The position numbers were made by a program, and so were the translations under genes. Below are positions 11,211 to 43,800 of a stretch of 64,000 nucleotides of DNA, in pieces; position 1 is the first letter of the stretch, and every line of letters begins with the position of its first letter. The DNA comes from a virus. The stretch spans positions 11,876-75,875 of the IMG/VR virus record IMGVR_UViG_3300006736_003672; one strand, written 5' to 3'. The notes beneath the pieces were generated by a model. The model made no database searches. It was not told where the DNA came from and was given only the letters and a program-made list of their open reading frames with translations.

Positions 11211-12459
11211 AACAATCAAGTCTGATTTCGTATTAAATGAAACTTCTTTAACACGCAAAAAACAAAAATATGAATCAATTGCTCTAAGTGATCAATTGCC
11301 TATAACTTGGAGCAGGGCAAAAAACTTTAACATTTTTGATGACAGAGGAAACAAGTGGATTGACATGACGGCAGGAATCTTTGTGTGCAATGCGGGCCAT
11401 TCAAATCCTAAAATAGTTAAAGCGATAAAAAAACAATCTGATGAATTAATTTTTTCTTTCCTTTATAACACTGAAATTCGATATAAGTTTATTGAGAAGT
11501 TGCTTGAAATATCTCCTAATCATTTTGAAAAAGCTGTGTTATTGAGTACCGGATCTGAAGTTACTGATATTGCAAATAAGCTTATTAAATTCTGGGCCAA
11601 GAAAAATAATAAAAAATATATAATATCATTTAGAGGAAGTTACCATGGTAGAGCTTTGGGATCTGATTTTTTGTGTGGAGACGAGAACAGTACAGACTGG
11701 TCTAACATAAAAGATGATGATATTCATTTTGTTGATTTCCCTCACGCCGAAGACAAATTTGATTCATCTCATCTTCCAGATCCTGAAAAAATAGCAGCCT
11801 TTTTTCTAGAAACTTATCAAGGATGGGGAGCTTGGATGTATCCTGACGAATATATTAGGGACTTATATAGCTTTGCTAAAAAGCATGGAATTCTAGTATG
11901 TTTTGACGAGATACAGTCTGGTTTTTACAGAATGGGAAAATTGTATGGATATATGACATACGGCGATTATATAAAGCCTGATTTAGTATGTTTGGGAAAA
12001 GGAATATCATCGTCGCTTCCTATGGCGGCATTGTTAGGGACCAAAGAATTGATTGATGTGGACAAAAGCGCCATCGTCGGCGGAACTCATTCTGGTAATG
12101 CCGTATGTTGTGCCGCTTCGTTGGCAAATATAAGTTTTTTAACAGATGAAAAGTTTCAAAAGTCTTTACACAGGAAAAATAAAATATTTTATAAGCTGTC
12201 AAGAAGTTTGTTGCAATATAATTCTGTAACACACGTTAATGCGCGAGGGATGGTCACAGGAATAATTTTTGAGAACAAGGAAATAGCAACCAATGTTGTT
12301 AAAAAATGTATTTCTAAGGGTGTCCTTCCGGTGTGTACTTTCAAAAATGCAATAAAGCTTGGCCCTCCTTTGACAATAACAATTGGAGCGATCAAAGAGG
12401 CGATGAAGGTCATAGAAGAGTCAATTGAGGAGGCTGAAAATGAGTCAATCTGCGCTTAA
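11185..12459 (+). CDS. Class III PLP-dependent aminotransferase
   Basis: NAGHSNP, STGSE, GSYHG, FDEIQSGFYRMG, LGKGI and GTHSGN. Confidence 0.9.
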   Translation: MKTIQTKHRTIKSDFVLNETSLTRKKQKYESIALSDQLPITWSRAKNFNIFDDRGNKWIDMTAGIFVCNAGHSNPKIVKAIKKQSDELIFSFLYNTEIRYKFIEKLLEISPNHFEKAVLLSTGSEVTDIANKLIKFWAKKNNKKYIISFRGSYHGRALGSDFLCGDENSTDWSNIKDDDIHFVDFPHAEDKFDSSHLPDPEKIAAFFLETYQGWGAWMYPDEYIRDLYSFAKKHGILVCFDEIQSGFYRMGKLYGYMTYGDYIKPDLVCLGKGISSSLPMAALLGTKELIDVDKSAIVGGTHSGNAVCCAASLANISFLTDEKFQKSLHRKNKIFYKLSRSLLQYNSVTHVNARGMVTGIIFENKEIATNVVKKCISKGVLPVCTFKNAIKLGPPLTITIGAIKEAMKVIEESIEEAENESICA

Positions 12460-21200: not shown

Positions 21201-22301
21201 ATGTCCGAAGAAGAAATTGATCAACAGCCAGCAACGGAAGACGACCTTGCAGATGATTTTGCAGATGATTTTGATTTTGTAGAACACTATGGAGAATCAG
21301 CTGAAGTAAAACACGAAGAGCAGCTGCCTGATAATACTGCAAAATCATCTTTAAACTGTGCTTTTGTTGGTGTCGGCGGAGGTGGAGGTAAAATGGCAAA
21401 AGCCTTTTTAGATTTAGGATTTAATAAAACTATTTTAGTTAACACGACTGAAAAGGACCAACCGGCCGGAATTGATTCTAAGCATTTGGTGCTTATTCCT
21501 GATGCAGACGGCGTTGCGAAAGATGTTTCTTATGGTAAAACTGTTTTTGAAAATAATGGAGCAGTTGTTGAAGATGCATTAAGAACTAAGCTTGGTAAAG
21601 TTGATTGGTTATTTGTGTTGGCTGGCGGTGGCGGAGGAACTGGAAGCGCATGCGCTTCCATGCATGAAGTTTTCGAAAGATACTTGGCTTCTGTTCAAGC
21701 GGAAGGGAGAGTTGTATATGTTGTTTCCTGGCCATCTGCACAAGAATTGCTAAATCCAACAATTGCGAAAAACGCTCTATCTTTGTTAAATGATGTATGT
21801 TCTTATCCTCACATTGTTTTGGACAACGAAAGGCAAGTCGAATTGCTTCGCGGAAAAGTTGGAATGTTAAACATGTTCCCAGTCGCAAATAAAACTTTTG
21901 CTAAATTATTTAATCAAGTTTTGAAGTTGTCTTCTGAAAATTCTCCCATTCAGACTTTTGATTCGAAAGATCTTGAAAGGACTTTAAAACAAAATGGAAG
22001 AATTTTTATTGGTTCTACAATTGTTAGAGATCCAAAGGATCCAAATCTTGGAGCACAAATTTTTCAAAATTGCCTTCAACGATCCCCGTGTGCTCCCCCA
22101 AAGGGAAAGCCGAAAACAGGTACAATGTTGTTAATTATGACCGAAGAGCTTGCATCAGATCCTGAGATTAGTAAACACTTGGATGCTGCAATGTCTTATG
22201 TTGGAGGAAGAACAGAGACGTTGTTCACAGGAGTATACATTAAAAGGAATGTTCCTGGCCTGGTAACAATATTGACCATGACAGGAATGGAAGAAGAGTG
22301 A
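21201..22301 (+). CDS. FtsZ/tubulin-superfamily GTPase (TubZ/CetZ/PhuZ-like)
   Basis: T1 GVGGGGGK, VNT, tubulin signature AGGGGGTGS, LDNE, ANK and T7-like FDSKD. AAGGAG Shine-Dalgarno. Confidence 0.88.
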   Translation: MSEEEIDQQPATEDDLADDFADDFDFVEHYGESAEVKHEEQLPDNTAKSSLNCAFVGVGGGGGKMAKAFLDLGFNKTILVNTTEKDQPAGIDSKHLVLIPDADGVAKDVSYGKTVFENNGAVVEDALRTKLGKVDWLFVLAGGGGGTGSACASMHEVFERYLASVQAEGRVVYVVSWPSAQELLNPTIAKNALSLLNDVCSYPHIVLDNERQVELLRGKVGMLNMFPVANKTFAKLFNQVLKLSSENSPIQTFDSKDLERTLKQNGRIFIGSTIVRDPKDPNLGAQIFQNCLQRSPCAPPKGKPKTGTMLLIMTEELASDPEISKHLDAAMSYVGGRTETLFTGVYIKRNVPGLVTILTMTGMEEE

Positions 22302-22583: not shown

Positions 22584-24077
22584 GTGGCAGAGCGAATACA
22601 GCATGGAATAAATGGACCCGAGCCACCATTATTTTCTAGAAACGTACACCCAACTACAACGCCTTTTAAATATATTCGTGACTTTGCCACTAGTCATAAC
22701 AAAACAAGTATTTTAAAAGAGGCCGGCCCTTATATAGCGGAAGTTATAAGAGTATATGATAAATATACTTTAGGACAATCGACTGGAAAAGTTCCTTTGG
22801 ATTACTGGAATCATTTTGAAGGCGACGAATCGGGAGAGATAGTTATTATAAGGGCGAGAATACCAGAAATCGATACTTTTGGCATCCCGCAGAAGCTTCC
22901 AGTAAATGATGAGGATTTTGTAAATTTAAGCTCAGAAGACAAACATCGTGTTGAACGCTACCCAAAATGCATTGCAAAGTGGTTAAACATGCCTAGACCA
23001 GCCGTTGGGCAGGCAGTTTGGGTAGATTTCAGAGATCCAAAAAATAGATCAGGTAGGATGTATTTGGGAATTGTCAACAGTACTCAACCTAATGCTTATT
23101 CTAGTGGTGCAGGATCTAAAGATGGTTTCGACAACCCTTTAACTCCAAATTATTTCCCGCCGACAGAGCCTCCAAAGCCATATACTGGGCCAGTTGTTTT
23201 TGCAGATGGATACAATTGGGCCTTCCCGGAAGGCGAAGTGGCGTTAACAATTGGGCCTGGGGAAATTGCAACTTTGGCCATGGTCGGCGGCAACCCGCGT
23301 ATAAGAGCCTTTATGAGAATGATTACGCTTCATGAAGGCGGGGCGCGCCACCAAGGTCCGGACAATGGCGTGATAGCTAGTCCATATCAATTGCTTGTAG
23401 GGGGGAAGGTAACTACCGACCCACAAAAACGCGCAGGCCGCATTACAAAGGGTCATATAGTATCTTCTGGAAATTTTTTTGGAGGAGGTTATGTGGGCCA
23501 TCCGGGCATTGTGGTCAAGTGGAACCCGGATGCATATGGGTCTTCTGCTTGTGGCAGATTTCAATTCTTGGGAAGTACCTGGAAGAACTGGGCCGCCCGC
23601 ACTCGAAAACGCCCGGGCCACCCTGATCGATCAATGGAAGAAGCTCGAGCCGATTTTTCCCCGGCGAATCAGGATTATGCGACTTATCAATTTATGATGA
23701 AACACAAAGGCGCCCCCGAGTTCGGTGGAGTTAAGGCAAGTCTACTTGAATTATTAGTTAAAATGGGCGACACTCCTGTTGAAGCTACTCCCGACAATAA
23801 AAAGATATGGAAATTAATTATGAAAACTGCCGGCCCAGGAGCTGGGCCAAAAGGGCCTAGGCATCACACTCCGGGCCCTGGAAAAGGAATTGGTGGAACA
23901 TGGGCTAGTTTACCTTACGCGTGCTATAAGAATCAAAGTTGTATAAAACTGCTCGCCGACGGCGGCCTTCTCCGCGACCAAAAAAGATATAACGAAGGGA
24001 TAGAATTATATTCAGCTTTGTTAGACGAAGAAAATATCATAGCGGAATATAACGCGGATCTGACACCTGTGGGATAA
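22584..24077 (+). CDS. Putative baseplate hub/spike (gp5-like OB-fold) N-domain fused to a lambda-R-type (GH104) lytic transglycosylase
   Basis: N-domain IRARIPE...PAVGQAVWVDF...MYLG resembles gp5/VgrG OB folds. C-domain IRAFMRMITLHEG, SSACGRFQFLGSTW and DFSPANQD match lambda R motifs. Confidence 0.75.
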   Translation: MAERIQHGINGPEPPLFSRNVHPTTTPFKYIRDFATSHNKTSILKEAGPYIAEVIRVYDKYTLGQSTGKVPLDYWNHFEGDESGEIVIIRARIPEIDTFGIPQKLPVNDEDFVNLSSEDKHRVERYPKCIAKWLNMPRPAVGQAVWVDFRDPKNRSGRMYLGIVNSTQPNAYSSGAGSKDGFDNPLTPNYFPPTEPPKPYTGPVVFADGYNWAFPEGEVALTIGPGEIATLAMVGGNPRIRAFMRMITLHEGGARHQGPDNGVIASPYQLLVGGKVTTDPQKRAGRITKGHIVSSGNFFGGGYVGHPGIVVKWNPDAYGSSACGRFQFLGSTWKNWAARTRKRPGHPDRSMEEARADFSPANQDYATYQFMMKHKGAPEFGGVKASLLELLVKMGDTPVEATPDNKKIWKLIMKTAGPGAGPKGPRHHTPGPGKGIGGTWASLPYACYKNQSCIKLLADGGLLRDQKRYNEGIELYSALLDEENIIAEYNADLTPVG

Positions 24078-24589
24078 GGAGTAAAATTTAAATGGCTAAC
24101 GAACGAATACAACATGGAATAAATGGGCCCGAACCACCATTATTTTCTAGAAATGTACACTCAGCCACAACGCCCTTTAAGTATGTAAGAGACGCCGCCA
24201 CTAGTCATAACAAAACAAGTATTTTAAAAGAGGCCGGCCCTTATATAGCGGAAGTTATAAGGGTATTCGAGACTTACACTTTAGGACAATCGACTGGAAA
24301 AGTTCCTTTGGACTATTGGAACCACTTTGAAGGTGAGGAATCAGGCGATATAGTTGTTATGAGAGTCCGCATACCAGAAATTGACACTTTTGGAATACCA
24401 CAGCAGCTTCCAGTAAATGATGAGGATTTTGCAAATTTAAGCCCGGGAGACAAGCACCTTGTTGAGCGTTATCCAAAGTGCATTGCAAAGTGGTTAAACA
24501 TGCCTCGCCCTGCAGTTGGGCAGGCAGTTTGGGTAGATTTCAGAGATCCGAAAAATAGATCAGGTAGGATGTATTTGGGAATTGTTAAT
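22584..24589 (+). repeat. Duplicated ~500-bp 5' gene segment (22584-~23078 versus 24092-~24589)
   Basis: Near-identical DNA and protein, including a perfect 65-bp match at 22686-22750 = 24197-24261. Confidence 0.95.
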
Positions 24590-25945
24590 ACTGCGCAAGC
24601 ATCACTTGATTCTGGTGACTCCGGCTCCGGCGATGGTGACTCATCCACAAAAGATGATTTTGATCAAGGGACCGATGCTGACAAGGCTCTCGCCACCCAG
24701 CGCAGCAGAAATGCGCTCAAGAGGGGCATCAAAATTCCTGAAGCTGATAAAGGCGATATTGCATTATTGGTCGGTGATAGCCAGATGAAGGGGAGGCTTG
24801 GAGAGGCTCTGGCCAAGCGACTTACAACTTTAGGATGGCAACTACTCCCAAAGGGGGCCGTCAAGGGGCAAACCCAAAGAGCTGCAACAGCTCGTACAGG
24901 CTCGTCCATTAAACCATGGCTTTTACAAGTTTGTGCGATACAAGACGGTAAGCCAGAATGGGGAAAAGCTGGTTTTAAATGTATAAATAAATATTTGACA
25001 AGAACACAACCACCAAAGGTTGTATATATATGTCTATCAGGAAATGGTGGCACTGGAAAACAAGCCGTAAAATTTATTAATATGATTAGAGATGCCACAG
25101 GAGAGGCAACACAGATTGTGTGGTTTTTAGCGCCAAAATCACATGATGCCCCCGGTGGCAAACAAAGGGCCTACATGAACCAAGGTACCGCTAATGGCAC
25201 GTGCCAGGCGCCTAAAACAGGAAGTAATTGCGGCCGCCTCGCGAGAAATTTAGAGATCCAGATGGCTATAGCAGAATTAGACAAAGTAATGATTATTGAT
25301 CCGCAAATAGAACTGCCAGATTACAAACCAGATGAGACAAATGCCCACGACGGGCTTCATCTAGGTAAAAAAGCTGCAGAAAGGCTTATTAATAATATAT
25401 CTAGAGGGTTACTTACAGCTGAACAAAGACAAAAACAGCTCCAGGAAAACCTCCTCGTCGGCGGCTGTTTCGTTGCAGGAACTAAGATTGCTGTCGTCGA
25501 TGAACTTGGCAACAAACATGAAAAGAACATTCAAGATGTGCATGTTGGAGATACTGTGTTGAGTTATAACTTTGCACTTGGTGCGCTTGAGAATAAGCGT
25601 GTCACGTCAACTTTCAATCCAATACACAATGATCTTACAAAGTTCACGTTCGACAATAACACGTCGACAATTCACACTTATGATCACCCATATTATGTAA
25701 TAAATAAGGGCTGGGCATCATTAAGTCCGGATTTTACAAAACATCGCTATGCTGAACATTCGTCAGAATTATTGGATACAAAACTTATTAATGTCGGTGA
25801 TCAATGTTTGCTTGATGATGGAATAACTTATACAACACTAATTGATGTACAGGTTGTTCATGGCAATAATGTTATGACGTATAATATAAGAGTTGAGGAC
25901 AATAACAATTATTTTGCTGACGGAATTCTGGTACACAATAAGTAA
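24092..25945 (+). CDS. Paralogous gp5-like N-domain + SGNH/GDSL hydrolase + C-terminal Hint (intein-like) domain
   Basis: Same N-domain as 22584. SGNH blocks LLVGDSQ, LSGN and DGLH. Hint domain CFVAGTKI...TYDHPYY...TYNIRVEDNNNYFADGILVHNK*. Confidence 0.8.
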   Translation: MANERIQHGINGPEPPLFSRNVHSATTPFKYVRDAATSHNKTSILKEAGPYIAEVIRVFETYTLGQSTGKVPLDYWNHFEGEESGDIVVMRVRIPEIDTFGIPQQLPVNDEDFANLSPGDKHLVERYPKCIAKWLNMPRPAVGQAVWVDFRDPKNRSGRMYLGIVNTAQASLDSGDSGSGDGDSSTKDDFDQGTDADKALATQRSRNALKRGIKIPEADKGDIALLVGDSQMKGRLGEALAKRLTTLGWQLLPKGAVKGQTQRAATARTGSSIKPWLLQVCAIQDGKPEWGKAGFKCINKYLTRTQPPKVVYICLSGNGGTGKQAVKFINMIRDATGEATQIVWFLAPKSHDAPGGKQRAYMNQGTANGTCQAPKTGSNCGRLARNLEIQMAIAELDKVMIIDPQIELPDYKPDETNAHDGLHLGKKAAERLINNISRGLLTAEQRQKQLQENLLVGGCFVAGTKIAVVDELGNKHEKNIQDVHVGDTVLSYNFALGALENKRVTSTFNPIHNDLTKFTFDNNTSTIHTYDHPYYVINKGWASLSPDFTKHRYAEHSSELLDTKLINVGDQCLLDDGITYTTLIDVQVVHGNNVMTYNIRVEDNNNYFADGILVHNK

Positions 25946-26036: not shown

Positions 26037-27143
26037 ATGTCGAATAAAAAATTAATAGAATATCCTAAATGTATTAGCGCGGAGAGAGCTAAAAAATTAA
26101 GCACACTTTCAGATAAAGATAGAGAAAGAGCGCTCTCTGGAGTGGGACAAGGGATAAAGTTTGAGTGCGCACCAGCATATGAAGCTGGGGACTGTGAAAC
26201 CTGGTTTAGAAGTAAAGGAGGAAATGCTTTTCTAATCTTGGGAAGAGATCGTCCAAATGGTTTACATAGTGGATACGGTGGGTCTGATGGGGAAAAGGGT
26301 GATCATCCAGCAGCATCAGCTGTAAGGCTTACAGCAGGAATGGGAGGACGTTCACCGAAAGAAATAGTTAACGTGCACGGTGTCGAACTTGTTAATACTT
26401 TAGATCCTAACAATCAAGAAGATGCTGCAACAATTTATTTAAGCCAAAAAACAGATATTGATGATAAGCAACGAGGCTTTAATTTAGCTAAAGGCACAAT
26501 TGGTAGAGTAGAAGCGCGCTCCGCTGCCGCCATAAAAGCAGATTCTGTAAGAATTATAAGTAGAGATGGTGGCATAAAATTAATTGCCGGCGGCTCCACG
26601 AAGAATTCGCAAGGAGGAAAAATAGACACTTATCCTGATATTAATTTTATTGCGGGAAACGACGACTCTGGTCGACTCTTGCAACCATTAGTTAAGGGCG
26701 ATAATATGAAAAAAGCTATTATCAAACTTTACAAATATTTAGATGAGATTCTTATAACCGTTAATAGTATTTTAATTGAACAGGATCTTTTAAATAAAAT
26801 TTTATCGACTCACCAACATCTGTTACCCCCAATCACCTTGCCGCCGATGAAGATTCAAGGCTACGGCGTTGGCGGAAACTCCGGCGGCATCGTCAAATCA
26901 ACGCTCCTTGCTAGTACAGTTCCGCCGTCTCCCTTCCCCATGGGGTTGGGAACTCCTTCCCCGGGGTGGACACTGTTTAGCCCGGAGGTGATGACTCAGG
27001 CGAACGTATGTTCTATGAATCAAATGAGCATTAGTATGGACAAGATTGTGAAATTAAAAGCTAATATGCTTGGATCAAAAGCCAATGCAATTTACCCAAC
27101 TTCACCTAATTATATAATGAGCAAAAATGTTTTTACAACTTAA
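26037..27143 (+). CDS. Putative tail spike/gp5 C-terminal-like protein
   Basis: Beta-repeat-like AIKADSVRIISRDGGIKL, QPLVKGD and an HQH metal-tip-like motif; follows the gp5-like genes. Confidence 0.5.
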   Translation: MSNKKLIEYPKCISAERAKKLSTLSDKDRERALSGVGQGIKFECAPAYEAGDCETWFRSKGGNAFLILGRDRPNGLHSGYGGSDGEKGDHPAASAVRLTAGMGGRSPKEIVNVHGVELVNTLDPNNQEDAATIYLSQKTDIDDKQRGFNLAKGTIGRVEARSAAAIKADSVRIISRDGGIKLIAGGSTKNSQGGKIDTYPDINFIAGNDDSGRLLQPLVKGDNMKKAIIKLYKYLDEILITVNSILIEQDLLNKILSTHQHLLPPITLPPMKIQGYGVGGNSGGIVKSTLLASTVPPSPFPMGLGTPSPGWTLFSPEVMTQANVCSMNQMSISMDKIVKLKANMLGSKANAIYPTSPNYIMSKNVFTT

Positions 27144-27162: not shown

Positions 27163-30100
27163 ATGCCAAAAGTACTAATAGAAAATCTTGAGCTTGAGTC
27201 ACTAATAGAGCCGCCTTTTACTAGAGATGAAGACACGTATGAGGTCGTCGTGTCAATTTGGGGAGTTCCCGGCACTGGCGACTTGGACACCCAATACAAA
27301 ATAGGGTCGAGTGCTGATAATTGGGTGTTCGAGACTTCGGACGCAATAGGAGATTGCACCGCCACGGCAAATCAGCAACAGCTCATCGAATTCGCAGACG
27401 AGCACACCGATTGTGTTGTCGATAAACTCATGCTCCATGTACAAAATCGTGGAGTGTATGTTATATTAAAAAAGCTTCTTGGTACCGGTATGGACAAGTT
27501 TGCCGCCGAAACCCCGGATGACGAAAACTACTCAATGGATGAGAACGGTTATCAAGTGCACGAAGGCTTCGGTACGAAAACCCGCGATCTTATAGCTATG
27601 AAAAATTACATGACTCACCTGCTAGAGGTAGTCGAAAACGATATCATAATTGGCACGTTTGTGGGCTATGAAGGCGATCCTGATGCCGATCCTCCCATCC
27701 CTCCGGTAGAAATTTGGAGATCCCCTCGTCCTTCAGATCCTCATCCACGCCGAGTAGTCGTCGGGCTTAGTATTGGCAAGGAAAATATAGAGAAGTTAAG
27801 AGGTCTAAATCCCGCCGAAGCAGTAGGGGAGATCTCAGAATTCGATGAAAAAGCCGGCGCCCCGGTGGTGACTCGCTCGGAGCCTAAATTTCGTCAAACG
27901 TTTCAGAATGTTTTTGAATTTAGAGACTTAATCGACAAAGTGTCTAAAGGATTAAAAAACTATCATGGCAAGTTATCAGATTCATATTTTGCTTATCATG
28001 TTCCTCCGCCCGGCTTACCTCAGGGTCTTTTGGGTCCGATTTATGACTCGGACGATGTAGAGGATTGGCCTGAGCTTGATTTTAAACAACAGGCTGCATA
28101 TTTGAAGGAGGCTGGTGACAAGATTATAGATTTTTTGAAAAGTTCTGGACATAATATGGGCGCACCTTTTGAAATTGGCTTTCGTAATTATCATAAAATA
28201 GATGAGGAAGGACTGACTACAGCTGAGTTAAGAGACGAAGTAAAAACAGGAACGGTTCCCGGGATAACGTATGTTGGATACCCGATAGAGTACGAAAAAG
28301 TGCGTTTATATACTTTATATGTCTTGAAAACTCCAAAGCCGCCCCCGGCCAGCGCGCCGGCACTTGATTATGGTTTAAATAAACCCCCGGTCCCATGGCC
28401 AACTTTATATCCCGACACAAGTCCAGACGGTGATCCTAGAATATTGTATGGGGATCCTGCTGCCTATGAAGTTGATTCACCATTTGACAAAGAACCGTTT
28501 ACGTTTGGTACTGTTAGATGGTTTTTGGCCAACTTGAGAGATATTGGTTATAAACACATCGGCGGCAAACCAACTCCAGAAGAACTCAAGGCGCAAACAG
28601 AAGCAGCTGCAGTTGTTGCAACGTCAGAAGCAATGGAAAATCCTTGTGCCATGTCTGCTCCTGCTATGGCTAGTAAAGAATCCATGCCGGTCGACGACTT
28701 TATTGAATTGTATGTTTACCCAAACCCCGAGACAATTTTTAAAACCAGTTCTATTTTGGATTTAGCTAAAAAATTAGCTGGATGGCACTCTGGAGAAGAG
28801 TCTGCTGAAAATAAAGCACTTGAACGTAAGTTAACCAAAGAAGACGTATTACAATCTGTAGTTAATAATAGCCATGTTAACGCTTCCGATTATGTTGGAG
28901 ACTTAGTATATAAAAACTTACCAGTATCTCCGAATAAAATTCGATCAATTCATGATGCATATGCATATATTTTAAGAAGACTTGATATCCCAACTATAAT
29001 AGTAAAACTATTAGAATGTCTTGGGTTGAGAGTAAGTTTAGACGACTTAATTGAGTGGATTTGTGATGACATTATTAAAGCTGTTGACGAAAAAACCGAT
29101 GGAGGTATTACAAAACTTGTTGAATTTTTGGAGAGTGGAGAATTTCAGATCCCGGGCGAATTCCTGGCACAGGATCCTCCCATTCAAGTGACCGACATTA
29201 TAGGAGTTATACATGCCCACTCGGACATTGATACTGGTTCTGCAGCGGTAGATCAGATGCTCAACACTTGGGATCGCAACCAAAAATTATTTATTTGCGC
29301 TGCAATTGCTGCCGGCCCATTCGCCGCAGTAGCCGGCTTGATTTGGCTAATTAACTATCTTCTTACTAGAGACGGGTCGTTGGACAAGCAGCCGGGAAAG
29401 AAGAAGTGTGATATTGAATTTTCATTTCCAGATGAGTGGCCAATCTTAGATGCTCTTTGGGATTGGATATTAAGAGAAGCTTTAAAAAGACTTGAAGAAG
29501 AAGCTATGAGATTACTAGAGGAAGAAATTATCAAGCCTCTAAATCTGCTATTACAACAACTGTTAGACTTTTGCGATAAAGAAGAAGAAAGTTTTGGAGA
29601 AATTTCGTCCGAAGATTTAGACCCAGATCTTGCTTCAAAAGCTGCTCCGCTATTTGTAGGGCCAAAATCAAACAAATTTTTAAAAAAGTTGTTGTCTGCT
29701 TTAACTCCTAGTGAACTATGCGGGCTTCTAAGAGGGACCCTTTTATTTGAGGCCCCTGAAACCAAAAAAATTACAAGTTTTATTTACGAGTTTGCTTTAG
29801 ACGAATACAATGGAGCACCTGCAGGAACAGTAGAACATGGAGGAAAACCCGGGCCTCTTGGTAACGGAAAAAATATACTTCAATTTTTTAAAAATCTTGG
29901 CAAGAAAGTAAATATGAGCGTGTGCGATGAACGAGAATTGCCAGAAAAGCCTATATCAGACTTTTGTGATGATCTTGGTGTAGATTATGAAAGTAATTTA
30001 AGAACCGCTTTAACTAACCAGGGACTCTCTGATGAACAAATTGAAGGTCAAGTTATAGCAAAGCGAAACGCCAAGAAAGAAATAGTTAGCTCCGCTATAC

Positions 30101-33100
30101 AAAATCTACTTAGAGGTAGCAATTTAACTGAAAAAGTAAAGGAAGACACAAAAAAAACAGTACAAAAGATTATAGTTGAAGCACTGCAAGGGACGAGCGC
30201 CGGCGCTATTAAGCACGTCATTAATAGTGCGGCAATTCCGATGACAGCTGATATGGCAAACTTTTCTTTAGCTTTTTCAAATACTTCATTTGTAAAAAGA
30301 CTTATTGCGGGAGTTGAGCTTGTAAAGACAGAGCCAATTTTTGATTGGCTTCCCACTGCGGAACTCAGTCAGTTCCATCGTTTTAGATTTAATATTTTTG
30401 ATGGTAAATATTTAGAAAAAAAAGCTTTACAGGCCGAATTCGGATCGTCTGCTCCTGATGTTAATATGTGTGATGAGATCACTCGCCATATTGCTCTTAT
30501 GGAAGATCTCAAACAGGAGATGGCAATGGATCTTCATGAAGCCCGATGGAAATATTGGGATGGAGATCTTTATGAGGACCTTGAAACAGGCCCGGGCCCT
30601 GCTTTTATCACTCTCGCCGACGCATCGATCGAGAGTTTCGCTGAATACAATAAAGCCCGAGCTGAAGAGGTTGGAGGAGACCCGACAGGAAAAGATTTGT
30701 CTGCATATGATTTATATCAATTGGGCTATGATCAATTCTCCGGGATGAGCAGATTCCACGCTAAGGAAGTACAAAGAAAAGTAGTGGAAGCATCTTGGTT
30801 TAATTTGCCACATAAAAATCTTATTAAAAGATACGAGAGGTTAACACCTTTAGAGTTTGATGACTTAGCAGTAATTGCATTTAGGTATTATAGTAGACAT
30901 GTGCATGATTACACCAACACCTCGGCCGGCGATGAAGCTGAACTCAAGTTATTCTCCGAGGCGAATCATTATGGATCATTTTATTACGATCCGTTGACAG
31001 AAGAGGGTGGTCATTATGCCTGGGGCCCTCTTCTCAGTTCGGTTAATTTTAGAATGGGCTCCTCCCGGCCTTGGGCCGAATCTCCGCCAGGTCCTGATCA
31101 ATATCCTTCAAAAAAACCTGATTGGGTGGATGTAGGATTTTACGATTTGGTGAGTAGGCTAGATCGTGCTTCTGGGACTGATCAAAACAATTATAAACTT
31201 TTTACGAACGAACCTCGTGTCACGGCAGTCATTCACCCCCACACTAAGGAGGTGAGAACTCATCTCGTTGCTACAGAAGACTTTCTTCAACGTGCTGGAA
31301 ATTGGACACCACGGAATCCAATTTGGTCAGGTACTGATGTTAAAACAGCGCTAGTTCAGCTTCTTTTATTTGTTTGGGATTTCGGCGCTGACGAGTTGTC
31401 AGATTTTCCATATGAAGCCGGCGTCGGAGCATCTATTAATACCCATCAAGGAACCGAAGATGGTTGGAAAGCAAATTTTTGGGGAGGACACTTATTAAGA
31501 GCTTTGAAGTATTATCAACATGGCTTGAACACAGTTCCCTCTTTTGCTATAGATTTTGACAAATCCAGCTTTGCGACGGTGGAGAAATCCGTCTACACCC
31601 ACCCAGTAGGCGAGCCTTACCCCACGTATGAGAAAGTCGTCGAGGTCGAGAAGAGCCTGAAAGAAGCAGATTTAGTTGATTCCGGGGATACAATAACTTT
31701 AATAGAGGCTGTCTGGGGACAGGGCGAGTGCGGCGAGGTCTACCGTTACTATGATTATGCAGGATGGACCCCGGCCTGCCCATCCCAAGATCCTGAAACG
31801 TTTGAAGTGATTCCGTCTAAAACAATGGTTGTGAACAAAGAAGCGTGGCTAGCGGGAAATGCTGAGTCTAAACTATTGAGAGCAGATCCCATTGATGATT
31901 CTGCAGAATTAATGGTAATCGATCCCGAGACCGGCCTTCGTGCACCATTTATTCCCGCTATGAAACCAACTCCTTTAAGTCTATTTTGCGCCCCGGGCTT
32001 AAAGAGAAGACCTCCGCCTCCGGATCCAGAAAAAACTTGGGAAGCTGTTTATACATTAGTTCCTCCTGGCAAAGGCAAAGACAAAGAAGGAAAATTAAAA
32101 TTATTGGATGAAATCTCGAGGTGTATAACAGATGACTACACAATTTCAGTTAAGGAGCCCGGGTACGGCGTCGCCATCTTCGGCACGGCGCCTGCAGTGA
32201 TATTAGACTATCGTAGTAAAGAAATATTAAAATTATGGGATGACATAGGCGATGACACTACAAACAATGAGCCTGGTTTTTCTATGAATAAAACAATCGA
32301 TGTACTTGCCGCTTCTATGGGTACTGGACTTGGATGGAATACATACGATGTAGATGAACCAATAGCTCCACAATTTCTCGAAAAAATGATTCTGAGACAC
32401 ATTGATGATAAGTTTCCACATTTTGATGATCAAATCATCCAAGATATGGTCGCCACCGGCGTCGGGGACTTTAATTCAGACTTCTCGATACACTATGCTC
32501 TTACTAAGGTGCTCAGAACCCACAAACAAGGAAGACTAAACCTATATGGAACTATTTTTCGGGACTGTATAAGAAACATGGCTAACTTATCATTGAAATA
32601 TGGAGTCGCTCAAAAAGCATCCGGAGACTATGATAGTTTGCAAGAAAAAATAATTGCTGCTGTTGGAGTACTGATGAATGATCTTGCTAGATCTAATGCT
32701 CTGACTGATTTGACTGATTTAGCAACCGATGCTGCAAACAAACACACAGACGCAATGGAAAATGCTGATTTGGCGGATATAAATTCTATTCCTTCAATTG
32801 GAAAAACATTAATATCTTATCCACCAAATCCCCCTTTTCAGCTGGATCATAGTTACGATCCGCCGATGAAGGTATTTGAAAAGGTTGATTGGAAGAAGGG
32901 GCCTGCTTTATTTAGGCTATTAATTAGAGTAGTAATTATGGAAAAAGTGTTTAAGACGCTCATGACATCTTCCACTTATTCAACTTCTGGTATTTTTTCT
33001 AGCATTCCAATGAAAATGATAATTGCGAGTTCCATCCGATCCCAGCTCTCGACCAACATTCGGGATAAAATTAAAATATTGGCATCGGATCTGGGAATTA

Positions 33101-36100
33101 TTGGGGAAGGCGCGTCATTTTCTTCATGTGTCTTGCCCATAATAGAAGAAGAAATTGAAGCAACATCTGGCAAAGTCAGCGACCTGTTGGGTAACACAAT
33201 ACCGCAATTGACAGAGTTCTTAAAAGACAATGTCTATGATCTGGCTACGTCTCATCCAGAGTGTAATATATATTCTACGTGGACGGATATGGATCGTTAC
33301 GTTCCCACGCAAACCGAAGCTGCCCTCGTCGCGCATCACGGCGAGCAGGATCCCGAAGGCTACGGAGGAGGACTCCAACTCCCGGACGAGTCTGCAGATC
33401 CCACGGCAGGTGAGAAGTATTGGGACGCGGTTATCGCTTTGAATGAAAACAAATTAGGCCTTAACGAGATTGTCGAACACCAAGAAGGTCCCAAGATAGC
33501 CAGCGATAATATATTTAGTTTGACAAATAATTTTCATTCAACATTAAGATTTATTGATGAAGATGGAATCCAAAAATACTCTGGCTTTATTTTAGAAAAA
33601 TATATAAAAGTTAAGTTCAAAAATAATTTAATAAAAAAAATAGAAGATAAAGATCAAGGAGAACAGTTTTTAGAGGCATGGCAAGCTCTTCCAATTGAAT
33701 GGCGAGGCAGCGCGCAAGATAAAATGAAGCCAGATGGATTCAAATATGCAACTTGTTTAAGCCCCGGAGAGTTTACATCTGCGATTGGTGACTTTTTTAC
33801 TTATTTTGGCAACATGACTCCTGAAGGTTGGGGTCAATCAGTGTTTGATTGGGCTCAACTTTTTGATCCTTATCAATTTAGTGAAAAGCTACAAGAACTC
33901 TCTGACAAAGTGTATGAGGAAGGAAAGCAAAACCCAGGAGACAAACACGGGCACGACAGCGTTCTGAATATTGATCGAAGCGAGAGAGATTTATGGTCTA
34001 ACGGGCCCGCCGGCCAGGCTATCTTCAGTGCAAATCCCCTGACCGCAGGCGCTAGCGCCCAATACAGTGATCATAATGTGGTTTCTAGATCTGCCGAAGT
34101 GCAGAGACATATTGCTCTCATGGAAAGGATTCTTGCATACCAGCTGAAAAATAACAGCGGCGGCCCCTCCGAAGGGTATGTTCATCCAGGTTCTGATCCC
34201 AGTTCGTACTACGAAGGCGATGAGGATAGTGCTAGACCTTTTAATTCTCCAGCCGGCTCGAGGATCCCATTCGGATCCACCGGTGTTAATGCCGGCTGGA
34301 ACGACAACACTGGATTGGGAATAGAAGGTACCGCTGAGAACATACAATCTTTATGGCATAGCCTTACTAATCAAGATAAACGTGATTTAGAGACAATTGC
34401 TTTTAGATTTTATTCTAGATATTATTTTGGAGACTTGAGATCATTTTACTTCGATCCTCATGATTCTGTATATCCCAAACACGCCGGCGGCTCTAACGTT
34501 GGACTTAAAGATTTTGTGGGAAGAAAAGGGTTTCTTGATTCGACTATGGATTTTCGTACTGGTCTCCGACGACCAGGAATGATGTTCATGAACGCCGTTA
34601 ACCAGAAAGAGTGCACCGAGGAACCACCTTTCTGGAAAAAAGCCGCCGTCGCCATCGGTGGTGCCCTCCTCTCCGGCCTTGTTTCTCTCATTCCCGGCGG
34701 GCTTATTATTGATCTAGTTGGATCATTCGCGGGACAGGGATTCAAGGCCGCCGGAGAATACTACCTCCACAAAGACGACAAATGCTGGTATGTCTCGGGC
34801 AGGTACGTTGTACCTCAACCAAACGATCCAACGTTGTGTCTTCATATGCCAACGTCGCTTATGGATATGATAAAAATGATACAAATGCAAACTTATGAAA
34901 CTGACAGCGGTTGGTGGAGCGAAAATGTTGGTAGTGCCGCCGCCGTCCATTACACCAATGGCGCAGATGGACCTGGCACATCGCAAGATGATCATTTAGA
35001 CGCAAAAATAAGTTATAGGACACCCCTTATACAAAGAGGCGCCAGAACGTCACAGCCGTCATATAGGATTCCCGATATCGTGGAGGAACCTGGCCACGCG
35101 GGCTACGGCGCGCGACTGGGCATGAGTTTGCAAGACAGAGACCCTGATGAAAATGAGATCTTGGGCGCCATGGCCAAGCTTCTTCTTTTTCCATATGAAA
35201 TTGGAGATTTTCAAACAAATTCATACAGCGATGAAGGATTAGATGAGTTTTGTGGTGATGATGACCAATGTGACGAAACAGTTATCAGAAGGTATTCAAT
35301 CCCCGGCTCTCAGCAATGGGGAGGTGCACTCGAAGACGACTTTGACGTTGATTTTTCCTCTGGTGGTCTTTATACATCTGCAAAGATAGGAGAAGAGTGG
35401 ACCGCGATATTTGGCGGGCACTTATACTGGGCCTTGCAATATTACAAAAAGGGATTATGGGAAACACACGCTGAATTTATAAGTGGCGAGACTGGAACAG
35501 TTATAACGTCACCCTCACCTTTGGGTATTTTTACTAAAGACTCTGAAGGAACCAGCAATGTTATAAAAATTAAGGGATCAATACCTGAAGATTTGAAATC
35601 TATAAGTGATATGGATTTGACAGGAGATGATGGATTTGCTGATGTGTCTTATGGTTTACGTTTGTCGTATCTTGTTCCTCCTAATGTTGCGTCCGAAGAT
35701 CCAAGAGATTATCCACTTTCACCGGGAAAAGACCAGCTACAGACCAGCGATGAGCGGTCCGCGACATTCTGGCCAGCCGTCGAAAAAGCGACCACCCCGA
35801 TGTTTTCGAGTAAACCATTTTTCCATGACACGGGAGAATACCGCACCAAATCCACGGAGTTGATATCTCACGTAATGGACGGGTGGGATTCGATGAAACG
35901 TGAAAAATCGATTTTTATAAGCGAAGTTCCTGAGGCTGTCCCATCAATTAATTTATCCGATCAGGACGAACGCCCACAATCAGCTGGCTTCGACCCCTTC
36001 GGCAACCTCCTCGTCGAGCACTCGCGGTCGAAATACAATATTGGCAAACCAATTGTTATATTACCAATAATGGAATATGAAGATCCTGTAGGTCCCGGGA

Positions 36101-36456
36101 AAAAATGGAATGATATCATATATACTGAGGAAATATTCACTAGCCTTTACGAAGGATTAAAGGTAATGCCTGATTTTAAACTTTTCTTTGAGTATGTTAT
36201 TCCACTTAAAAGAGTCGTGATGATGTTGGCGATCCGTGACATGTTAAATTTTGAATCATCTCTTTCCGAGCTTCCATATAAGACGGCGTTATTTGAGGCT
36301 AGTAGGGGAGATATATTTAATTTGGTTAGATATGCCTTTGACGCAAGTAAAGATCCAAGAATTGTCTCGCCCCCCGCCCAATCCATTATCGCGCTTCAAG
36401 GATTCAAAGACCAGTTTGATAGCCTGAACCTCATCGATACATCCGGCGATAGCTAG
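27163..36456 (+). CDS. Giant (3097-aa) putative virion protein with an internal duplicated domain
   Basis: Uninterrupted 9.3-kb ORF between the spike-like and gp25-like genes; no family recognised. Confidence 0.6.
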   Translation: MPKVLIENLELESLIEPPFTRDEDTYEVVVSIWGVPGTGDLDTQYKIGSSADNWVFETSDAIGDCTATANQQQLIEFADEHTDCVVDKLMLHVQNRGVYVILKKLLGTGMDKFAAETPDDENYSMDENGYQVHEGFGTKTRDLIAMKNYMTHLLEVVENDIIIGTFVGYEGDPDADPPIPPVEIWRSPRPSDPHPRRVVVGLSIGKENIEKLRGLNPAEAVGEISEFDEKAGAPVVTRSEPKFRQTFQNVFEFRDLIDKVSKGLKNYHGKLSDSYFAYHVPPPGLPQGLLGPIYDSDDVEDWPELDFKQQAAYLKEAGDKIIDFLKSSGHNMGAPFEIGFRNYHKIDEEGLTTAELRDEVKTGTVPGITYVGYPIEYEKVRLYTLYVLKTPKPPPASAPALDYGLNKPPVPWPTLYPDTSPDGDPRILYGDPAAYEVDSPFDKEPFTFGTVRWFLANLRDIGYKHIGGKPTPEELKAQTEAAAVVATSEAMENPCAMSAPAMASKESMPVDDFIELYVYPNPETIFKTSSILDLAKKLAGWHSGEESAENKALERKLTKEDVLQSVVNNSHVNASDYVGDLVYKNLPVSPNKIRSIHDAYAYILRRLDIPTIIVKLLECLGLRVSLDDLIEWICDDIIKAVDEKTDGGITKLVEFLESGEFQIPGEFLAQDPPIQVTDIIGVIHAHSDIDTGSAAVDQMLNTWDRNQKLFICAAIAAGPFAAVAGLIWLINYLLTRDGSLDKQPGKKKCDIEFSFPDEWPILDALWDWILREALKRLEEEAMRLLEEEIIKPLNLLLQQLLDFCDKEEESFGEISSEDLDPDLASKAAPLFVGPKSNKFLKKLLSALTPSELCGLLRGTLLFEAPETKKITSFIYEFALDEYNGAPAGTVEHGGKPGPLGNGKNILQFFKNLGKKVNMSVCDERELPEKPISDFCDDLGVDYESNLRTALTNQGLSDEQIEGQVIAKRNAKKEIVSSAIQNLLRGSNLTEKVKEDTKKTVQKIIVEALQGTSAGAIKHVINSAAIPMTADMANFSLAFSNTSFVKRLIAGVELVKTEPIFDWLPTAELSQFHRFRFNIFDGKYLEKKALQAEFGSSAPDVNMCDEITRHIALMEDLKQEMAMDLHEARWKYWDGDLYEDLETGPGPAFITLADASIESFAEYNKARAEEVGGDPTGKDLSAYDLYQLGYDQFSGMSRFHAKEVQRKVVEASWFNLPHKNLIKRYERLTPLEFDDLAVIAFRYYSRHVHDYTNTSAGDEAELKLFSEANHYGSFYYDPLTEEGGHYAWGPLLSSVNFRMGSSRPWAESPPGPDQYPSKKPDWVDVGFYDLVSRLDRASGTDQNNYKLFTNEPRVTAVIHPHTKEVRTHLVATEDFLQRAGNWTPRNPIWSGTDVKTALVQLLLFVWDFGADELSDFPYEAGVGASINTHQGTEDGWKANFWGGHLLRALKYYQHGLNTVPSFAIDFDKSSFATVEKSVYTHPVGEPYPTYEKVVEVEKSLKEADLVDSGDTITLIEAVWGQGECGEVYRYYDYAGWTPACPSQDPETFEVIPSKTMVVNKEAWLAGNAESKLLRADPIDDSAELMVIDPETGLRAPFIPAMKPTPLSLFCAPGLKRRPPPPDPEKTWEAVYTLVPPGKGKDKEGKLKLLDEISRCITDDYTISVKEPGYGVAIFGTAPAVILDYRSKEILKLWDDIGDDTTNNEPGFSMNKTIDVLAASMGTGLGWNTYDVDEPIAPQFLEKMILRHIDDKFPHFDDQIIQDMVATGVGDFNSDFSIHYALTKVLRTHKQGRLNLYGTIFRDCIRNMANLSLKYGVAQKASGDYDSLQEKIIAAVGVLMNDLARSNALTDLTDLATDAANKHTDAMENADLADINSIPSIGKTLISYPPNPPFQLDHSYDPPMKVFEKVDWKKGPALFRLLIRVVIMEKVFKTLMTSSTYSTSGIFSSIPMKMIIASSIRSQLSTNIRDKIKILASDLGIIGEGASFSSCVLPIIEEEIEATSGKVSDLLGNTIPQLTEFLKDNVYDLATSHPECNIYSTWTDMDRYVPTQTEAALVAHHGEQDPEGYGGGLQLPDESADPTAGEKYWDAVIALNENKLGLNEIVEHQEGPKIASDNIFSLTNNFHSTLRFIDEDGIQKYSGFILEKYIKVKFKNNLIKKIEDKDQGEQFLEAWQALPIEWRGSAQDKMKPDGFKYATCLSPGEFTSAIGDFFTYFGNMTPEGWGQSVFDWAQLFDPYQFSEKLQELSDKVYEEGKQNPGDKHGHDSVLNIDRSERDLWSNGPAGQAIFSANPLTAGASAQYSDHNVVSRSAEVQRHIALMERILAYQLKNNSGGPSEGYVHPGSDPSSYYEGDEDSARPFNSPAGSRIPFGSTGVNAGWNDNTGLGIEGTAENIQSLWHSLTNQDKRDLETIAFRFYSRYYFGDLRSFYFDPHDSVYPKHAGGSNVGLKDFVGRKGFLDSTMDFRTGLRRPGMMFMNAVNQKECTEEPPFWKKAAVAIGGALLSGLVSLIPGGLIIDLVGSFAGQGFKAAGEYYLHKDDKCWYVSGRYVVPQPNDPTLCLHMPTSLMDMIKMIQMQTYETDSGWWSENVGSAAAVHYTNGADGPGTSQDDHLDAKISYRTPLIQRGARTSQPSYRIPDIVEEPGHAGYGARLGMSLQDRDPDENEILGAMAKLLLFPYEIGDFQTNSYSDEGLDEFCGDDDQCDETVIRRYSIPGSQQWGGALEDDFDVDFSSGGLYTSAKIGEEWTAIFGGHLYWALQYYKKGLWETHAEFISGETGTVITSPSPLGIFTKDSEGTSNVIKIKGSIPEDLKSISDMDLTGDDGFADVSYGLRLSYLVPPNVASEDPRDYPLSPGKDQLQTSDERSATFWPAVEKATTPMFSSKPFFHDTGEYRTKSTELISHVMDGWDSMKREKSIFISEVPEAVPSINLSDQDERPQSAGFDPFGNLLVEHSRSKYNIGKPIVILPIMEYEDPVGPGKKWNDIIYTEEIFTSLYEGLKVMPDFKLFFEYVIPLKRVVMMLAIRDMLNFESSLSELPYKTALFEASRGDIFNLVRYAFDASKDPRIVSPPAQSIIALQGFKDQFDSLNLIDTSGDS

Positions 36457-40806: not shown

Positions 40807-43800
40807 ATGAGTACCAAAGACTATTTCAATAAAGACCAATCTATTATTAGGGTCGCCGCATCTGCTTCCATGGGCGATCTTGGAAATGAAGTAGAATCGG
40901 CTGAATTTATACAAGAGAAAATAAAAGATACAGATCGTTTTGTACCTTTTGTAGATTTTTCGAAACCAGAAAATTTTGTTAGATTTGGATCCGCTGAAGA
41001 ATACTATGCTGAATCTATTAAAAGAGTATATAGAACATATCCATATGACGGATCTTTAAAAGAAAAGACCCAGTGGCACAATAGTTCTTCCTTTTTGGAT
41101 CGATATATTTTTGATAAGGTTTATCCTCGTTCAACAGGGTACGCTATTTTTTCTTCCAATGGTTGGGGGTCTGTTTCAGCGACCAAAGGCGCCATGGCGA
41201 CCGAAAATGAATATGGTCTTTCAGCAACGCCAGAGTATATTTTAATCAAGGGGGGCCCGCATAAAGATCCTAGCTATTCGTCAATGTCAAAACTGTTCCC
41301 ATCGGCTGATGGGAAATCTAATATTTATGACTATGATAAAAATAGAGAATCAAATTTAAAATTTGGAGGCAATGATGGAAATACAGTTGAATTCTGGTTG
41401 TGGAAACATGATTTTGATCCATCTAAGACAAAAAAAGAAGTTATTTTCGATGCAACTACGACAGATTATGTGTCTTCTAGTACATTCTATGGTCGCTTAA
41501 GAATTGAATTATCTGCTACAACAAGACAAGATGAATCTCCGTTTTACGTAACATATTTATCTGGCAATGCCGGCGATGTTGACTCTCGTTCAACTGCCGC
41601 TTACAATGGCGGCGGGTTTTATAGCGCTTCAATAGGAGATAATTTAACTACCGCTTCTATTGCTGATAGAAGCTGGCATCATTATGCATTTACGTTTAGC
41701 ACTTCGGGCAGCGGCACCGGCCCGGGCGGAACTCGCGTCAGATTATATGTAGATGGAGACCTGAACACAGAAACAATTGTTGGAACTAGTGCCAGTTATG
41801 TAAGTGGGAATATTAATGCAGCTATTGGTGCGTTAATCACCGAGCAGTCTGGTGCTGAAAATATAGATTGGTCTGATGCCACAGGCTATGGTAAAATGTC
41901 TGCTTCAGTAGATGAATTTAGGTTCTGGAAGGTGGAAAGAACTCCAAAAGAAATCGGGCGCAATTGGTTTACTCAAGTTTATGGTGGGACAAATACGGAC
42001 GACGCAAATACTCAACTAGGAGTATATTATAAATTTAATGAGGGGGTCTCCGCGACATCCAGTTATGATTCGAAAGTCTTGGATTACTCCGGAAGAATCT
42101 CTTCAGGATCTTGGGAAGGATATCTATCGACTTCTCGTAATACAGGATCGGCAATATTATCTGCCAGTGCCGCAGTATATGAATTTGAGGATCCCATTCT
42201 TTATTCATTCCACACCAACGTCACTAGCGCTTTAGATAGTTACTCAAAATTAGGAAAGAACTTTGATTATCAAAATAATGCTTCGATTTATAATAGTATC
42301 CCAGAATGGATAATATCAGAAGATAGATATGTTGGCTCTAATTTATTAAAATTGACACAAATTATGTCAAGCTATTTTGACACACTGGCCTATCAAATTA
42401 AAGCACTACCATCAATAAAGAATATATCTTATACACCATTTACATCTTCTTTTATTAGTACGGGTTCGGGCCCCACAGGCAGTGGTGAGTACAAGCCTCT
42501 TCCTTTTGCCAATAGACTTCTAGAATCCGCCGGATTAACTACGCCAGAAATATTTCTTGATGCTGATGTAATTTCTAAATTTACCTCGAGAGATGAAAAA
42601 ATTCTCTTTAAAGATAATCTTTATGATACAAAAAATTTAATTTACCAAAATATATATAATAATTTAATCTACATTTATAAGTCAAAAGGGACCGAAAAGG
42701 CTTTTAGAAACGCCATTAGGTGTTTTGGCATAGATGATGAATTAATTAAGATAAATGTATACGCCAATAATATAACTTACGAACTTAAAGATAGTTACAA
42801 TTATACAGTCCAAAAAAAGAATTTTGTAGACTTTCATATTCCAGATCACAACACCGCTGTAATATACCAAGCGACTAGTAGCAACTCAAATACAGTGTCT
42901 TTTATTTCCGGCAGCGAGGAATTTTACAGCGGTTCGGCAAGAACACTAGAGGCTGAAATTATATTCCCTCGCAGAGAAACTTATGAAAAACCAGGACAAT
43001 ATATAATAGCTCCCGGGCTCACTTCTTCTTTGTTTGGCACCAAGGGCGCCTATTCTATCAATACTGAATTACAATCGGATCTAAATGATCATAGATATAC
43101 AACATGGCAGCAACAAGATCATGGTGACTTAAGAGTTATGGCTGTAAAAGATACGCATGATATTTTATCGACAAACGCATACTTTAAGTTAACATCCAGC
43201 ACAATGGCCATCAATTTAACTTCCGCTGTCTTTTATGATGTTTATGAAGGCGAAAAGTGGAATTTTGCAGTTAGAATTCGACCTTCGACATACCCAATGG
43301 CCAATAAGGTTTCTGGTTCTCGCGATGCTTATGCTCATGGTTCCGGAACTGTTGAGTTTTGCGGGGTAAATGCTTCAAACAACGCCATAAGAAATGAATT
43401 TTATTTGACTGCCTCTTCTCCTTTTCCTGGTTCCGATATTGGCGCGTCTCGTGTCAACCACTGGATAGGGTCACCTAAAAGAGTATACGCTGGTGCCTTG
43501 AGAGCAAACTTTACAGGAACATTGCAGGTTTATTCAGATGTTAAAGTATCATCTGTAAGATATTGGTTTGATTATTTGCCAGATGAGGCTATCAAAGCCC
43601 ATGCTAAGGATTCTGGCAACGCCGGCGTCGTTCACCCATATGATTATGCTTATTTATTTAATGCTCCTACTGCCAGCCTTTGTTATATTCCCAAGATTGA
43701 AACGTTGGCGCTTAATTGGGACTTCGACAGGGTTACTGGCTCAGACTCAACAGGAGGGTTCGTTGTAGAAGATATTTCTTCTGGGTCAGCAGCACTTACA

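Follow-up and report, generated by a model that had tools for sequence, protein, structure and literature searches.

A phage tail-module SGNH esterase that ends in an A-type bacterial-intein-like domain and a single conserved lysine

The window analysed here is a stretch of 64,000 nucleotides from the IMG/VR virus record IMGVR_UViG_3300006736_003672 (positions 11,876 to 75,875 of that record), and our subject is one gene on its plus strand, at 24092-25945, that codes for a protein of 617 amino acids. The protein begins with an N-terminal module (residues 1-185, 24092-24646), followed by a linker and an SGNH/GDSL hydrolase domain (approximately residues 216-437, 24737-25402), and then a second linker of 21 residues, RGLLTAEQRQKQLQENLLVGG (25403-25465), that ends at the predicted scissile Gly458. 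The remainder is a Hint domain of 158 residues, from Cys459 to Asn616 (25466-25939), of the A-type bacterial-intein-like (BIL) kind, then Lys617 (AAG) and the TAA stop codon (25940-25945, with TAA at 25943-25945), all on the plus strand.

The junctions of the Hint domain can be placed precisely. The residues LLVGG are coded by 25451-25465, directly before the TGT codon of Cys459 (25466-25468), the predicted nucleophile of an N-S acyl shift, which is followed by FVAGT. Block B, Thr529-Tyr-Asp-His532, lies at 25676-25687, or to 25690 with its proline, and block G, His615-Asn616, at 25934-25939. The open reading frame (ORF) closes with ILVHN-K (25925-25942) and the stop, so that a single residue follows Asn616, and within 158 residues there is no space for an endonuclease. 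An earlier reading of these letters without database searches, the sequence-only reading, had placed LLVGG, the Cys459 codon, block B and ILVHN-K-stop at these same positions, and its statement that the protein has no Cys, Ser or Thr at the +1 position, no C-extein and no endonuclease was confirmed on the 617-residue ORF. The Hint gene truly ends at 25945, since synteny with six related metagenomic loci extends to the next gene, which starts at 26037. Reading through the stop was also considered and set aside, as it would add only 13 residues that are similar to nothing.

Searches with the terminal 158 residues identify them as a complete Hint domain, with a match far beyond chance. Pfam assigns PT-HINT with 28.5 bits, a marginal pass of the gathering score of 27.7, and Intein_splicing and AXH also match, while TIGR01443, the intein C-terminal region, scores 25.5 over a cut-off of 15.6. 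As a single sequence, the best PDB match is 6TMM/6Y75 with an E-value of 1e-7 over the whole domain; with a family profile built from 44 relatives, BIL2 is found at 7.5e-27, the BIL structure 2LWY at 1.2e-21, AXH at about 1e-14 and true inteins at 1e-9 or weaker. An AlphaFold2 model of residues 438-617, calculated from the alignment of 44 relatives, has a predicted local distance difference test (pLDDT) score of 94.1 for the Hint domain. Foldseek places 6Y75, the BIL2 domain of Tetrahymena BUBL1, closest to this model (template modelling (TM) score 0.89-0.90, root-mean-square deviation 2.2 Å), followed by the Clostridium thermocellum BIL 2LWY; mini-inteins rank behind both BILs, and Hedgehog 1AT0 is far lower, at rank 40 with a TM score of 0.67.

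Judged by sequence and modelled fold, the domain belongs to the A-type BIL domains, and neither to the inteins nor to the Hog domains of Hedgehog. All the features of A-type BILs that a sequence can reveal are found, namely the Hint fold, Cys1 together with the TxxH of block B, the final His-Asn, a non-nucleophilic +1 residue and a variable location in host proteins, and the family profile matches known BILs better than it does inteins or Hog domains. At the His column of block F, the query has Asn; across the family this column is His in 39% and Asn in 25%. A class 1 intein was rejected, as the ORF ends HN-K-stop with neither a C-extein nor a +1 Cys, Ser or Thr and the domain is appended beyond the end of Hint-less homologues, and so was a Hog domain, as no sterol- or adduct-recognition region follows the Hint, the His-Asn end is present and 1AT0 is distant. 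A BUBL protein does not fit either, with an SGNH domain and a helical linker upstream, nothing downstream and a ubiquitin-like resemblance limited to the LVGG tail against LRGG. For the pretoxin HINT family (PF07591) the gathering score is barely passed, but no toxin domain follows, there being one residue downstream. Most of these BIL domains obtain their highest Pfam score with the eukaryotic AXH family, known from ataxin-1 and HBP1, and automatic annotation may thus mislabel them.

In an all-against-all HMMER comparison, 3,056 proteins scored E<=1e-3 and 692 of them E<=1e-10, and almost every one matches through the Hint domain alone. Conservation was counted on 202 full-length Hint domains, taken from 138 of the best 150 representative proteins. 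Cys1 is present in all 202, Thr and His of block B in 97% and 99% respectively, and the penultimate His and final Asn in 194 (96%) and 199 (99%) of the 202 domains. The flanks behave differently from one another. Upstream, the commonest -1 residues are Ser (43 domains), Gly (28) and Cys (22), with no restriction in the remainder, and the nearest Hint relatives read ...EKPT|C (P0012, 68% identity) and ...EPEN|C (P0010, 51%). Downstream, the +1 residue is Lys in 143/202 (71%) and Arg in 20, with Cys, Ser or Thr in only 13/202 (6%). Exactly one residue follows the Hint in 23 proteins, and this is Lys in 21 of them and never Arg, whereas Arg is found at +1 in 13 of the 48 domains that are succeeded by another Hint; 2-7 residues follow in 34 more proteins. 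The 23 terminal copies share a mean pairwise identity of 39%, and conservation reaches 90% in just 21 of their 158 columns. These columns include Cys459, Thr529, His532, His615 and Asn616, with His-Asn kept in 21 of 23 copies and the +1 Lys at 91%. The same Hint-Lys-stop ending is seen in several IMG/VR viral ORFs (L027-L031, L046 and L049), and in the profile of PHROG 21587 the Hint domain also takes the C-terminal end (positions ~543-706 of 706). By these counts the lone downstream lysine, which the sequence-only reading had taken for a mere absence, is a conserved feature of the family.

Other arrangements of the domain were seen among the relatives. Tandem arrays of 2-8 Hints per protein, with 1-6 residues between them (K, KC, KGG, KGA, RS and others), are carried by P0011, P0014, P0015, P0028, P0046 and the loci L028-L030, and include a 4,119-residue protein of Mucilaginibacter angelicae with five copies. 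A viral family of ~750-925 residues (P0040, P0053, P0079, P0091, P0095 and P0144, and L027-L032 in IMG/VR) has an N-terminal part of ~465 residues that ends ...HNAP, then 2-3 Hints and a final Lys-stop; nothing was named in this N-terminal part by Pfam, searched with P0040, or by PHROGs, searched with the IMG/VR members. P0071, a eukprot entry of the foraminiferan Nonionella stella, has three Hints, each after an ...LRLRG-type tail and followed by MQIFV. It is a polyubiquitin of the BUBL type, with intein-like domains, from outside the ciliates, and its +1 residue is Ser or Ala and not Lys.

Homologues with the same N-terminal module and SGNH domain and without a Hint (P0156, P0020, P0078 and P0070) end level with query residue 437, beyond which the query continues with the 21-residue linker, itself without counterpart in these homologues, the Hint and Lys. 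The closest Hint relatives, with up to 68% identity, sit on unrelated large proteins and share only the Hint with this genome, and both SGNH and Hint are missing from the six closest syntenic relatives, which have other cargo. A second protein with the N-terminal module, SGNH and Hint was not found in searches of 5.8 billion clusters, 1.84 billion representatives and IMG/VR or in the six syntenic loci. With a G+C content at third codon positions (GC3) of 0.308, the Hint coding region is close to the mean of the genome (0.310), and on this native composition a recent foreign acquisition was rejected. Because of the Hint-less homologues, the unrelated carriers and the native composition together, we describe the Hint as a portable C-terminal module on an otherwise complete enzyme, resident long enough to have taken on native composition.

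The assignment of the host enzyme to the SGNH family, also made in the sequence-only reading, is borne out by its motifs GDS228-230 (24773-24781), Gly270, Gly317-Asn318 within SGNGG (25037-25051) and Asp420-Gly-Leu-His423 (25349-25360), which represent blocks I, II, III and V and are all kept in homologues, by a match of Lipase_GDSL_2 (Pfam) to two homologues, and by Foldseek, whose top 50 matches for a poor full-length model (pLDDT 45) are all SGNH/GDSL proteins and include peptidoglycan O-acetyl-transferase and -esterase structures. The N-terminal module is elsewhere fused to lysozyme-like, Amidase_2, VanY/M15 or SGNH cargo. A de-O-acetylase of peptidoglycan or envelope glycan is a reasonable guess for the SGNH domain, since the sister cargoes all act on peptidoglycan. 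The module itself is presumed to be a virion or baseplate docking domain. A language-model Atlas search alone gave a lead here, with a feature score of 0.93 to Gp5_OB clusters; this resemblance went unconfirmed: neither Pfam nor a profile search of the PDB gave a match, the hhalign comparison with T4 gp5 and a tblastn search of GenBank phages were likewise negative, and the AlphaFold2 model is poor in this region.

The gene stands in the tail module of a phage, as we conclude for the contig from its genes for a baseplate wedge, 11 kb downstream, a head maturation protease, PhoH and an exonuclease. Six related metagenomic loci keep a fixed order of a conserved 366-residue gene, one or two genes that join the module to a cargo, a 368-residue gene and a giant protein. 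In the window, the 368-residue gene lies at 26037-27143 on the plus strand, as it lies directly after the cargo gene or genes in the six related loci. Directly upstream of our subject is a paralogue of 497 residues (22584-24077, plus strand) with the same N-terminal module, a C-terminal domain like that of a lysozyme or endolysin and no Hint; in these tandem genes, 22584-24077 and 24092-25945, the ~185-residue module is 84% identical and the enzymes differ, lysozyme-like in one and SGNH in the other. At the corresponding place, the related loci (L107-L112) have either a single gene of this type or two, with different cargo (Amidase_2, VanY), and the slot looks like a cargo-swapping position for tail-tip enzymes. 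Judged by this context and by the fusion partners of the module, the most likely role of the protein is that of a cell-envelope enzyme associated with the tail tip or baseplate, whose warhead can be swapped.

We think it moderately likely that the Hint domain and Lys617, the last 159 residues, form a single-turnover self-cleaving cap behind a complete SGNH esterase. Self-cleavage is to be expected because the catalytic set is complete, with Cys459, Thr529/His532 and His615/Asn616 in columns 96-100% conserved across the 202 relatives, because there is no C-extein, and because BIL domains that lack a +1 nucleophile are reported to yield mostly cleaved products (PMC7664689, PMC5874633). That the terminal Hint cannot splice in the classical manner, having neither +1 nucleophile nor C-extein, and that thioester chemistry is expected at G458|C459 had been proposed in the sequence-only reading, and we concur. 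According to a mechanism drawn from the family, Cys459 of the folded protein would attack the carbonyl of Gly458 in an N-S acyl shift assisted by Thr529 and His532 of block B, and the thioester would be resolved chiefly by water. This would release an esterase of 458 residues and 50.1 kDa with a C-terminal tail of 21 residues, together with a free Hint of 18 kDa (calculated masses), and Asn616 could also cyclise and shed Lys617. Cleavage would restore a body that resembles the orthologs, since the Hint-less homologues end at residue 437. Such a cap could be kept as a removable pro-domain or assembly timer of an enzyme that has to fit into the tail tip, or as a tolerated hitch-hiking module.

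Several points weigh against this reading. That cleavage occurs, and that hydrolysis would be its main outcome, we infer from homology to the family. The His-Asn and the trailing Lys are strongly conserved in terminal copies and yet would be unneeded for plain N-terminal cleavage; the C-terminal motif has decayed in Hedgehog proteins and in B-type BILs. The Asn in place of the block F His may change the coupling of the two reactions in the query. The nearest solved relative, BIL2, is moreover reported, in section 2.4 of PMC8616854, to ligate and not merely to cleave, as it forms isopeptide bonds to Lys-epsilon amines without ATP or E1/E2 enzymes.

The conservation of His-Asn-Lys could be explained if the thioester were passed to an amine, either that of Lys617 or an external one. 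An external amine, of a baseplate or spike lysine or of the host envelope, would attack the Gly458 thioester and anchor the esterase covalently, an outcome that we regard as unlikely. Hedgehog offers an example of a terminal Hint able to transfer its N-terminal fragment to a nucleophile (PMC5874633), and the conserved HN-K end argues for something beyond plain hydrolysis; no candidate acceptor was identified, though, the bacterial BILs that have been studied mostly cleave (PMC7664689), and both the Hint-less SGNH homologues and the Hint-less syntenic relatives function without the domain. Covalent attachment is thus not needed for the core function. The sequence-only reading had gone further and proposed ligation free of ATP and of E1/E2 enzymes through a ubiquitin-like Gly-Gly thioester. 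The precedent for such ligation in BIL2 is real, but the proposal gains no support in this protein, which has Hint-less SGNH homologues, and the ubiquitin-like element of it is weakened. Conservation of the Gly-Gly among homologues, which that reading itself had set as a test, had to be assessed on family-level counts, since true orthologues were not found: Gly-Gly precedes Cys1 in 10 of 201 domains (5%), and in 5 of 120 domains without a preceding Hint. Upstream of the Hint lie an SGNH fold and a linker modelled by AlphaFold2 as a helix (443-454) and an extended LVGG, not a beta-grasp, and GG|CF could be read as Hedgehog-like just as well as ubiquitin-like, since Gly-Cys-Phe is the classical Hedgehog junction.

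If the acceptor were instead Lys617 itself, through its epsilon-amine before Asn616 cyclises or its alpha-amine afterwards, the protein would undergo a one-residue splicing and the esterase would end ...GG-Lys; we consider this improbable. It would account for the +1 lysine, present in 143 of 202 domains and in 21 of the 23 terminal ones, where Arg never occurs compared with 13 of 48 before another Hint, and for the retention of His-Asn where nothing follows. The N- and C-terminal junctions also meet in one active site in the Hint fold, and ligation without a nucleophile, by the alpha-amine route, has reportedly been described for A-type BILs (Dassa 2004; Aranko 2013). These counts are not phylogenetically independent, however, Arg, Glu and other residues at +1 in ~29% of domains make an amine non-obligatory, and a free lysine from Asn cyclisation would diffuse away. 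The domain might also remain uncleaved and serve as a structural or binding module, like the Hint-related AXH, with no role in autoprocessing. AXH is its best single Pfam match (4.7e-9), but spans the first two thirds only and falls 12 orders of magnitude behind BIL structures when the family profile is used, and the catalytic positions are all present and strongly constrained, which makes such a role very improbable. Hardly credible at all is an artefact, in which a truncated intein gene or an assembly error has removed the C-extein: among GenBank phages only helicase mini-inteins of Vibrio phages match (~31% identity), as such a remnant would suggest, but Hint-Lys-stop recurs in 21 independent representative proteins and several IMG/VR contigs, the downstream gene order is kept in six related loci, the +1 position holds the Lys typical of the family and not Cys, Ser or Thr, and the exact protein is present in two public collections, although the Atlas copy may share its sample origin.

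Beside the self-cleaving cap, which we continue to favour, the analogy with BIL2 suggests a more far-reaching idea to which we assign a low probability, namely that the Hint-Lys cap acts as a single-use ligase and that the Cys459 thioester would be passed to Lys617, to a lysine of a tail-tip partner or to an amine of the host envelope.

The remainder of the contig gave further observations. The 366-residue gene just upstream of the enzyme pair (window 21201-22301) shows extreme conservation (E ~1e-225) across all six related loci. Two giant ORFs of the tail module, at 27163-36456 (3,097 residues) and 40807-51681 (3,624 residues), have no PHROG match; the related loci do share a conserved N-terminus with the former. 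Ahead of the tail module lie ~30 kb of glycan-biosynthesis genes on one phage contig (window 166-19664, with L025 8669-11900), among them several nucleotide-sugar epimerases, aminotransferases and glycosyltransferases and a GtrB-like gene. Part of an ORF of 995 residues (56929-59916), at 58372-58809, shows 26-30% identity to P0034 and P0035, both of which carry a near-terminal Hint; a second Hint domain was not found in the contig.

To our knowledge, the natural role of BIL domains has been unclear since their description in 2003, and this protein offers a clean case in which to address it, with a small precursor (68 kDa), a complete host enzyme and natural Hint-less comparators. The family is large, with the 692 proteins found at the stricter threshold, and its trailing Lys equals the catalytic residues in degree of conservation. 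Were cleavage its only activity, the domain would give phage tail enzymes a new kind of maturation step and would be a compact natural tag that removes itself. If ligation were true, it would mean enzyme-free thioester cross-linking of virion parts or attachment to the host; a single-use ligase would fix a cell-wall esterase covalently without ATP or E1/E2, in the way that BIL2 treats ubiquitin-like domains, and the same chemistry could apply to many phage tail proteins that end in a Hint. The architecture, a protein-terminal BIL with a single conserved Lys as its C-terminal flank on a phage tail-module enzyme, is not described in the literature searched. The A-type BIL family is known; what is new is the hub-type SGNH esterase as host within a two-warhead pair, the Hint-less comparators and the link to BIL2 of BUBL1.

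Among known systems, the query shares with A-type BILs the Hint fold, Cys1, the TxxH of block B, the C-terminal His-Asn, the absence of a +1 nucleophile and of an endonuclease, and a non-conserved site in the host protein. These domains were reportedly described by Amitai et al. in 2003 and Dassa et al. in 2004, and the Clostridium thermocellum member is PDB 2LWY. Unlike them, the query domain forms the very end of its protein with a single conserved Lys as the entire C-terminal flank, and its host is a phage tail-module enzyme and not a secreted bacterial protein. BIL2 of Tetrahymena thermophila BUBL1 (6Y75/6TMM; Chiarini et al. 2021) is the best match in both sequence (26% identity) and structure and has the same Gly-Gly|Cys thioester junction, its LRGG|(C1A) aligning with LVGG|C of the query; it differs in having ubiquitin-like flanks on both sides and an acceptor lysine in the C-terminal flank or in other proteins, whereas the query has an SGNH esterase and a helix on the N-terminal side and no C-terminal flank.

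The Hog domain of Hedgehog is likewise a terminal Hint that uses the N-S acyl shift alone, and it has in common with the query the G|CF junction, Gly-Cys-Phe being the conserved Hedgehog cleavage site, but the query is without a sterol-recognition region and keeps the intein-type His-Asn that Hog lacks. The class 1 mini-inteins of Vibrio phage DExH helicases show the same CF(P/V)AGT...VHN framework at ~31% identity; they lie inside the DE|CH helicase motif with a +1 Cys and a long C-extein and must splice, whereas the query ends in Lys-stop. The pretoxin HINT domain stands upstream of a C-terminal toxin and is assigned the role of a releasing peptidase (Zhang et al. 2012, PMC3482391); a releasing role would be alike in the query, where nothing lies downstream. 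Tail fibres and spikes of phages can likewise carry a C-terminal chaperone domain, peptidase S74, that cuts itself away once folding is complete (bioRxiv 10.1101/2024.10.28.620165). Its fold and chemistry are unrelated, with a Ser-Lys dyad in a triple beta-helix, unlike the predicted Cys thioester in the Hint fold of the query.

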